Shown here one piece after another: positions 10,759 through 12,312 of a DNA stretch of 24,511 nt (position 1 is the first letter of the stretch; each line of letters starts with the position of its first letter). The notes beneath the pieces are model-generated. The model saw only the letters and a list, made by a program, of their open reading frames with translations. It was not told where the DNA came from and searched no databases. The stretch lies in the IMG/VR virus record IMGVR_UViG_2874956758_000006, positions 1 to 24,511 of that record, one strand, 5' to 3'. Source of the DNA: a virus. Lineage: Duplodnaviria > Heunggongvirae > Uroviricota > Caudoviricetes. A program made the translations under genes and the position numbers.

Positions 10759-10920
10759 TTACCTCCGGTTTTGTTTTTCCAGCTTTTCAGCCAGCCTGGC
10801 TGCATCAATCATTTTTCTCAGATGAACCAGATTCTTCTGGTTTCGTGTTTTCTGCTCCGCCGTTTCCCCCCGCCCGAACTGAAGCAGCGTTTTTTCCAGA
10901 ACATCACAAAGTGACTGCAT
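10759..10920 (-). CDS. small hypothetical protein (53 aa) translationally coupled to the helicase
   Basis: ATG shares one base with the helicase TGA stop (TGATG); ends TAA at 10759-10761; carries the SD of the next gene. Confidence 0.35.
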
Positions 10921-12312
10921 CAGAAATCCTCCGTCTGTGCGTAGGGTTTACGTGCCGGACCACCAAGTCTCAGACGTCTGGCAGCATCCTCTGCGCTGAC
11001 ATCAGTCACTGAACCGTTATCCATCAGGGCGTATGCTGTTCCTGTTGCTCCCTCCCTGTTCAGACGGAGAATCAGCTCCATAAGCTGAGAGTCTGCGTTA
11101 CGGTTGTAGACAGCATCCCGGTACAACCCAATCCATACATCGCAATCCTGTTCAATCTGCCCGGTATCGCGACTGTCGCTTGGTGTGGGGCGTTTATCTG
11201 CCCTGTCCTCGAGTTTTCGGTTAAGTTGCGTCAGAAGTAAAACCACGCAGTCCAGCTCTTTAGCGAGATTTTTTAAGCCCGTTGTGATATCCCCGAAAGA
11301 AATATCACGACGCTCCGCGGCTTCCGCCTTCATCAGCGTCAGGTAATCGATCGCCACAAGGCCGACAACACCACGCTGACGCTTAACCTTCCGGCATTCA
11401 GCGATCACATGGGCCAGCGTTACCCCTGGTGTGCTGTCAATCATCAGGTTTGATTCTGCCAGTTCTGCGGCTTTCGCCATCGCCTGCGCCATATCCGAGT
11501 CATCACTGGCACCGACATAAAAAATTTCAGAATTTACCCTCGCCTCCTGCGCAACCATGCGCTCAACCAGGCTGCGATCTGTCATTTCCAGGGTGAATAC
11601 CAGTGTGGGCAGACGATGATTCAGAGCAAAATGCGTCACAATCCTGTTCAGCGAGGCGCTTTTACCCATTTTCGGCCTTGAACCAATCACTACCAGCGAA
11701 CCACGTAGCACATGTTTGGGGGCCATAAGCCGATCCAGATAGCTAATCCCCAGCGTCAGACCCGCTGCGTTCTCCGGGCTGGAAAAGCGACGCTCAAGAT
11801 CATCAATCCAGTCGTTAACCACATCACTTACCGGGCGCAGACCGCCTGTTTTTCCTGTTCTGGCATACTCTGCCATCGTGCCAATGACCTGTTGAACTGC
11901 GCCAAGTCGTTCTGTCGCACTCGTGTCTGTCGGCTGATTCATGATCCCGATGCACGCATGTAATTTTTCCACCGCGTACCGCAGGATGGACAATCCCGGC
12001 GTAGTGAACCATCGCCGATAGCGTGGCACTCCTGCTGATTTCAGCAAGGTACGCAAAGCCACCAGTCTCAGCATCCAGTTTTTTCGCCTCGATCACGTTC
12101 GCAAGGCTGAGCAGGTCCGTAGGCTTTCCGGCGCGGAAAAGTCCGCGAATTTCACGGAAAATAACCCTGTGCGCCGCAACGTAAAACGACTCCGGTTTCA
12201 GCATCGAATACACCAGCCCCGCACGCTCAGTGTCGGTGTTTACCATCAGGCCCCCCAGCACTGCCTGTTCGGCATCGACCCGGTATGGCACCGGAAAGGT
12301 GTTATCTGTCAT
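10920..12312 (-). pseudogene. DnaB-like replicative helicase, split by a frameshift near 11985-11992
   Basis: N-terminal-domain ORF (…AEQAVLGGLMVN…GGFAYLAEISRSATLSAMVHYAGIV) and C-terminal RecA-fold ORF (LRYAVEKL…Walker A GSRPKMGKS…Walker B VAIDYL…) lie in different frames and overlap; the joint needs a 1-nt indel. Confidence 0.7.

Follow-up and report, generated by a model that had tools for sequence, protein, structure and literature searches.

Is the DnaB-family phage helicase that is encoded across two frames on the minus strand of this DNA a misread gene, a helicase naturally made in two parts or a dead one, and what would its state mean for the prophage carrying it? The two frames are apparent in the list of open reading frames (ORFs) of the window, by which we mean the whole 24,511-nt stretch that was analysed, and jointly cover positions 10920–12312. 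The features discussed below are collected in Table 1.

The start annotated in homologs of this helicase corresponds to window position 12312. From there, the N-fragment ORF reads MTDNTFPV...MVHYAGIV and then continues through 54 out-of-frame residues to a stop codon. In the C-fragment ORF, family homology begins at ...SILRYAVEKL, and gene callers let its product begin at the ATG at 11876, giving a protein of 318 aa. Pfam analysis showed that the two domains typical of the family fall on separate fragments: the DnaB N-terminal domain PF00772 on the first (83.9 bits for a cut-off of 23, residues 9–109) and DnaB_C PF03796 on the second (212.6 bits for a cut-off of 27), together with AAA_25. The P-loop of the C-fragment is SRPKMGKS, in which the GKS of Walker A is retained. 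Head, helical hairpin, linker and RecA domain are thus carried by a single polypeptide in the 467-aa alleles at 98% identity but not in the window. A DnaB-like helicase lying in two frames, with ...MVHYAGIV in one and LRYAVEKL... in the other, is what a sequence-only reading of this DNA had described, and the ORFs and the domain split agree with it.

Table 1. Position, strand and basis of the features of the window discussed in the text
Feature	Position	Strand	Basis or remark
IS2 copy cut by the window edge	1..915	+	abuts the inverted lysis/packaging block
DedA/VTT-domain ORF	1859-2437	-	inside the 1761-3426 stretch
182-aa ORF, family not assigned	2639-3187	-	inside the 1761-3426 stretch
Terminase small subunit gene	3207-3758		first 220 nt inside the 1761-3426 stretch
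IS600 interrupted by IS30 (IS30 ~7695-8913)	7368..9854	+	cuts short DUF977, which lies downstream of the replication module; marks deletion/inversion breakpoints
Intact 53-codon ORF, no known family	10759..10920	-	start overlaps the helicase stop; "hypothetical protein" in E. coli relatives
Whole helicase pseudogene	10920..12312	-	phage-type DnaB-family replicative helicase; 467 codons in intact alleles
C-fragment ORF	10920..12074	-	ORF list
Native C-terminal part, +1 frame, S112-F467: helical hairpin, linker, RecA-like DnaB_C	10920..11990	-	PF03796
N-fragment ORF	11824..12339	-	ORF list
Out-of-frame N-fragment tail, 54 non-native residues (HPAVRGGKITC...), then TGA	11824..11988	-	ORF list; exact 162-aa protein match
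Native N-terminal coding part, residues 1-108, globular head of the DnaB N-terminal domain	11989..12312	-	PF00772; DnaB alignment
Deletion joint, TGCGGGAAAAA (gene sense) absent	11990..11991	-	alignment A1, codon bookkeeping; 1-nt T/A placement ambiguity
Intact initiator-like gene, HTH_36 and weak DnaD_N match	12302..13057	-	Pfam; overlaps the helicase start (12312) by 11 nt
YdaT gene	13148-13570	-
cro-like YdaS gene	13554-13829	-
cI-like repressor gene	13937-14398	+
IS2 copy, 1331 bp, flanked by the DUF1391 and rha-like genes, early-left region	15298..16628	-	matches the IS2 annotated in L002 at 99.85%
Integrase gene, 411 aa	22222-23457

Three-way alignment of the window with two E. coli copies of the gene revealed a single gap relative to the intact alleles, of exactly 11 nt (TGCGGGAAAAA), and no further indel. 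In the gene sense, the missing bases lie between GGGATTG and TCCATCC, and the two alleles read GGGATTGTCCATCC versus GGGATTGTGCGGGAAAAATCCATCC at the joint. Val108 is retained, its codon changing from GTG to GTC, Arg109, Glu110 and Lys111 are gone, and Ser112 and all that follows stand in the +1 frame. The deletion removed the A5 run of the intact allele and is flanked by a microhomology of 1 nt only. A repeat-mediated deletion via the nearby TGCGG...TGCGG pair was considered and rejected, since it would remove 18 nt rather than 11. Over window positions 9855–13671, the helicase deletion is the only gap opening relative to the E. coli relative, and the genes beside the helicase are therefore intact. 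The joint had been estimated from the letters at 11985–11992, within the plus-strand string GGATGGACAAT; both contain the joint as it is now placed, where the context is indeed not a homopolymer. Alignment to intact helicases, suggested at that stage as the means to find the indel, has thus yielded an 11-nt deletion and not a single-base slip.

A megablast search of complete E. coli genomes retrieved the same gene from nine chromosomes at 98.1–98.6% nucleotide identity, with matches spanning 1472 nt for a query of 1461 nt. Eight of these nine close copies hold a single 467-codon ORF, the exception being that of strain RMDEC465, and the annotation of FDAARGOS_943 and CFSAN029787 gives the gene as one "replicative DNA helicase" of 467 codons. 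In the phage collection, megablast with the gene gave no match and relatives came only via the protein-level search; a single ORF was found in all six phage homologs examined (44–65% identity). The intact allele (P0006, 467 aa) matched E. coli DnaB with E = 9e-73 over residues 9–433. Its best NCBIfam match was phage_DnaB TIGR03600, with 391.7 bits for a cut-off of 498.65, and it reached 316.7 for a cut-off of 385.25 with the DnaB model TIGR00665; by these scores, the gene is a family-level homolog and not an equivalog of either model. Among phage helicases of the DnaB type, P22 gp12 is the classical reference (Wickner 1984, cited in PMC8022706). The label "P22 gene 12-type" given earlier to the window gene was fair as a statement of homology, as it shares ~44% amino-acid identity over 95% of its length and the same two-domain architecture with gp12 of the P22-like phage SE1, Sf6 gp44 and HK022 P. 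Judged by sequence comparison, the helicase is nonetheless a sub-lineage separate from the P22 gene 12-type helicases.

To which organism the broken allele belongs is apparent from its exact matches. Over 20,489 nt, the window matches GenBank CP026831.1 (assembly GCA_002950055.1) at 100% identity; the literature search found no paper on this sequence. CP026831.1, the draft GCA_053979195.1 and the Logan assemblies of SRR364093 and ERR5984615 all contain a 33-nt junction string that is absent from the E. coli loci. A pattern for the deleted and the intact allele found no match in species-representative genomes or JGI metagenomes. The exact 162-aa N-fragment and 318-aa C-fragment have been deposited as separate Shigella dysenteriae proteins (WP_284514359.1 and WP_284514358.1, the pairs EPY9099367/8 and EPY9103333/4, and MDS1497600/599), and a 171-aa version of the N-fragment, WP_311013585.1, derives from a different 4.84-Mb contig. 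The SRR364093 contig (L005) shares the 11-nt deletion; apart from one T missing from a T8 run and another from a T6 run (12857 and 13368), it is the same as the window. These losses, which resemble homopolymer read errors, split the ydaT-like and initiator genes in the gene calls of that contig.

In E. coli DnaB, the head spans residues 32–123, the helical hairpin residues 124–173 and the linker helix residues 182–202 (PMC6391071), and alignment with the intact allele maps the break to V126/R127 of this protein. The break is thus located just behind the globular head, and no single polypeptide links the head to the hairpin, the linker and the RecA-like motor. Arg109 and the acidic residue that follows it are conserved in every aligned homolog (alignment A2, comprising P0006, six phage homologs and the window). 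The deletion most likely abolishes helicase function, because an E. coli DnaB fragment that has the linker but lacks the N-terminal domain is cited in PMC4523182 as having kept its ATPase and lost its helicase activity.

Set against five E. coli copies, the window gene has seven substitutions private to it, of which five are nonsynonymous. One of the five, C21G, probably preserves the ancestral residue, G or A being found at this position in 6/6 phage homologs, while the comparison with the same six shows S195Y and A215S in the window alone. A215S (window 11668–11670) changes the first Walker-A residue, ARPKMGKS becoming SRPKMGKS, where alanine occupies the position in 7/7 other aligned sequences; it may have drifted in after inactivation. 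As a set, the private substitutions fit relaxed constraint, in a sample too small for a formal test and polarised only by distant phage homologs. The gene has been hit a second time, in E. coli RMDEC465 (L007, NZ_CM177019.1, 549–1952), whose copy has an independent CAA to TAA nonsense change at codon 366 that PGAP flags as "internal stop". The adjacent DUF1627 gene of this strain is frameshifted.

The replication module around the broken gene follows the order cI-like repressor, cro-like YdaS, YdaT, HTH_36 initiator and helicase. The helicase is directly downstream of the initiator in the early-right operon, after cro/cII-like genes, a layout shared with SE1, HK022 and ZF40, the last of which likewise has an HTH-domain protein as its initiator. 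The 11-nt overlap between initiator and helicase genes was also found in ZF40, SE1, HK022, the Yersinia phage vB_YenM_30.14 and the Pantoea phage PA-1 (L010–L014); Pasteurella phage Pmp10 has the same gene order with an overlap of only 1 nt. Recurrence of the 11-nt overlap in distant phages suggests a conserved translational coupling of the two genes. In lambda O and P22 gene 18, origin iterons lie inside the initiator gene. The initiator gene of the window harbors only short direct repeats at 12658–12729, namely two copies of TGACTGGTTC set 17 nt apart and two of GGTGCAACTCCTGC(A/G)CT set 24 nt apart, the latter pair also encoding a repeated SAGVAP peptide; no tandem repeat array was detected in this gene. 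These mid-gene repeats are candidate origin iterons.

The surrounding lambdoid prophage is clearly heavily decayed and defective. Its intact relative in FDAARGOS_943 (L016, NZ_CP065615.1) carries first int, recombination genes, rha, the immunity region, the initiator, the helicase, DUF1627 and DUF977, followed by nin-like genes, DUF1133, four tRNAs, holin, lysozyme, terminase, portal, head and tail genes and ipaH3. Relative to it, the window is missing L016 14415–20900, from within DUF977 to just before the IS600 copy, a segment that comprises the nin-like/antiterminator-like genes, DUF1133, the tRNAs and the holin gene. The block from lysozyme to DUF2213 is inverted (window 916–7367 versus L016 22169–28961), and since its other end abuts IS2 and not IS600, more than one rearrangement is needed. 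A further deletion of 636 nt relative to FDAARGOS_943 truncates both the portal protein (355 aa versus 513 aa) and the head-morphogenesis protein (184 aa versus 229 aa). The 10-nt overlap at its junction (~6426–6435) suggests that this deletion was repeat-mediated, whereas no comparable repeat flanks the 11-nt helicase deletion. Capsid and tail genes are absent from the window, the right end of which is the host gene ybhA.

Insertion sequences account for four copies at three sites, IS2 being present twice and IS600 once with a nested IS30. The three IS insertions counted by the sequence-only reading are right as sites, whereas the copies number four. That reading had also drawn on them to argue that the prophage is replication-defective: the IS events do show a defective prophage, but they hit late and lysis functions and add nothing to the claim about replication. 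As the initiator gene is intact, the case for a replication defect comes from the helicase lesion and not from the IS elements, and such a defect is what this lesion by itself would predict. About 1000 complete E. coli genomes contain the nested IS600::IS30 unit in a single piece at ≥99.6% identity, which means that the unit moves or is inherited as a composite.

Other differences from the FDAARGOS_943 relative concern the mosaic structure and the integration site. Window positions 1761–3426 have no nucleotide match to the FDAARGOS_943 prophage and resemble a mosaic replacement, which lies between the lysis genes and terminase and reaches into the 5′ end of the terminase gene. The integrase combines an excisionase-like PF07825 match with arm-binding and catalytic domains. 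The integrase module differs between the two prophages, that of the window lying beside ybhA and that of FDAARGOS_943 beside yebY. The FDAARGOS_943 relative ends beside the T3SS effector gene ipaH3 (L016 47721–49001), which associates this prophage family with an ipaH locus in Shigella/EIEC-type genomes.

Against this background, the possible explanations of the two frames can be weighed. That the gene is really intact and that sequencing or assembly dropped 11 nt in one assembly is hardly conceivable. The same junction is found in four independently produced sequences, at least three sets of GenBank protein records plus a second complete chromosome carry the split, and the loss of 11 nt from non-repetitive sequence is atypical of platform errors. 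The SRR364093 read set is error-prone, differs elsewhere only at homopolymers and still shows the deletion, which counts for a real mutation. The 11-nt deletion is fixed in a S. dysenteriae lineage and is not an error, in line with the earlier view that a genuine mutation was more likely than a read error. A two-ORF arrangement conserved in homologs, the finding which that view had set against itself, was not encountered, the split being confined to sequence-identical, clonally related copies. A real break might still be harmless if the helicase were rescued by a programmed +1 frameshift near the joint, or if one or both fragments were active in replication or in another ATP-dependent role. 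The C-terminal ORF is long and intact except for A215S in the P-loop, with GKS kept in Walker A, and a GTG in its frame, 2 nt past the N-fragment stop, may allow low-level reinitiation, but no Shine-Dalgarno-like sequence was found before any in-frame ATG, GTG or TTG of this frame. In vitro, DNA is unwound by the RecA core of a mycobacteriophage DnaB homolog carrying a thioredoxin tag (PMC4523182), so a fragment lacking the N-terminal domain is not necessarily inert; against this stands the E. coli fragment described above, and the hairpin that forms the N-terminal-domain collar is here parted from its head (PMC6391071). Frameshifting encounters its own difficulties, since the split is a recent, derived state, the gene being a single ORF in nearly all close copies and in every phage homolog examined, and a frameshift signal has had no time to evolve. 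On inspection, the joint shows neither a slippery sequence nor a stop-codon motif for a +1 shift, and 54 codons separate it from the next in-frame stop. Neither a conserved shift nor a recognisable site, as expected of programmed +1 frameshifting, was found, and even a perfect +1 shift would still leave out the R109-E110-K111 segment. Given, in addition, that the prophage lacks the late genes that make replication useful, a functional split is very unlikely.

A different question is whether the loss of the helicase was itself selected, as a means of disarming a non-excising, non-lytic prophage whose origin would harm the host by firing in situ after SOS induction. Two independent knockouts in different lineages, the 11-nt deletion here and the nonsense codon of RMDEC465, would suit such adaptive silencing, as would a helicase hit while the initiator gene and the immunity region stayed intact. 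However, two events among dozens of alleles are also expected from the neutral decay of a useless gene, and most carriers keep the helicase intact, including strains with IS-damaged copies of the prophage. We therefore regard selected silencing as improbable; if it were true, the RMDEC465 mutation would be a second instance of selected disarming. The locus is, with high probability, an ordinary frameshift pseudogene of a DnaB-type phage helicase in a decayed S. dysenteriae lambdoid prophage. What marks it as a pseudogene is a lesion that disrupts the frame relative to intact orthologs and is reproducible in independent sequences.

According to this pseudogene reading, a lambdoid prophage in a S. 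dysenteriae lineage once had its own DnaB-type replicative helicase. An 11-nt deletion, with a flanking direct repeat of at most 1 nt, then took out codons 109–111 and shifted the frame. The native ATG is predicted to yield now a 108-residue globular head followed by a 54-residue nonsense tail, the hairpin, the linker helix and the RecA-like ATPase/translocase ring being left in the other frame with no recognisable ribosome-binding site. The prophage would thereby be unable to supply the helicase that its initiator should load at the phage origin, and autonomous prophage replication would not be expected. The helicase mutation is inherited in the lineage and is one of several independent prophage lesions, IS activity having also cost or scrambled the late-gene regulator, lysis and morphogenesis genes.

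This is gene decay of an ordinary, already known kind, at a locus that is already in public annotation, though as two proteins. WP_284514359.1 and WP_284514358.1 are the halves of one pseudogene, and annotation should flag them as such. This S. dysenteriae clade has a clean lineage marker in the 11-nt deletion, and the helicase break adds one more documented lesion to a remnant already incapable of particle production. Its importance is mainly one of annotation, and it opens no new mechanism or question.

E. coli DnaB is the cellular helicase, loaded by DnaC or by lambda P. The phage-type gene has the Walker A motif, the linker and the N-terminal domain in common with it (PDB 6bbm and others). 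The succession of initiator and helicase in the window resembles that of P22 genes 18 and 12. Compared with SE1 and HK022, the partner initiator differs, being an HTH_36 protein in the window whereas theirs are annotated as Gp18 and O protein. Pseudogenes and IS elements abound in Shigella genomes. With the IS-driven decay of these genomes, the window shares a small frameshifting deletion, the IS2, IS600 and IS30 copies and an IS-adjacent deletion and inversion, and it shows nothing distinctive against this general pattern. The closest phage-borne relative of the helicase in the phage collection, the DnaB-like replicative helicase gp15 of Pectobacterium phage ZF40 (64.5% identity over 95% of the length), is intact in a complete inducible phage, whereas the copy in the window is broken.
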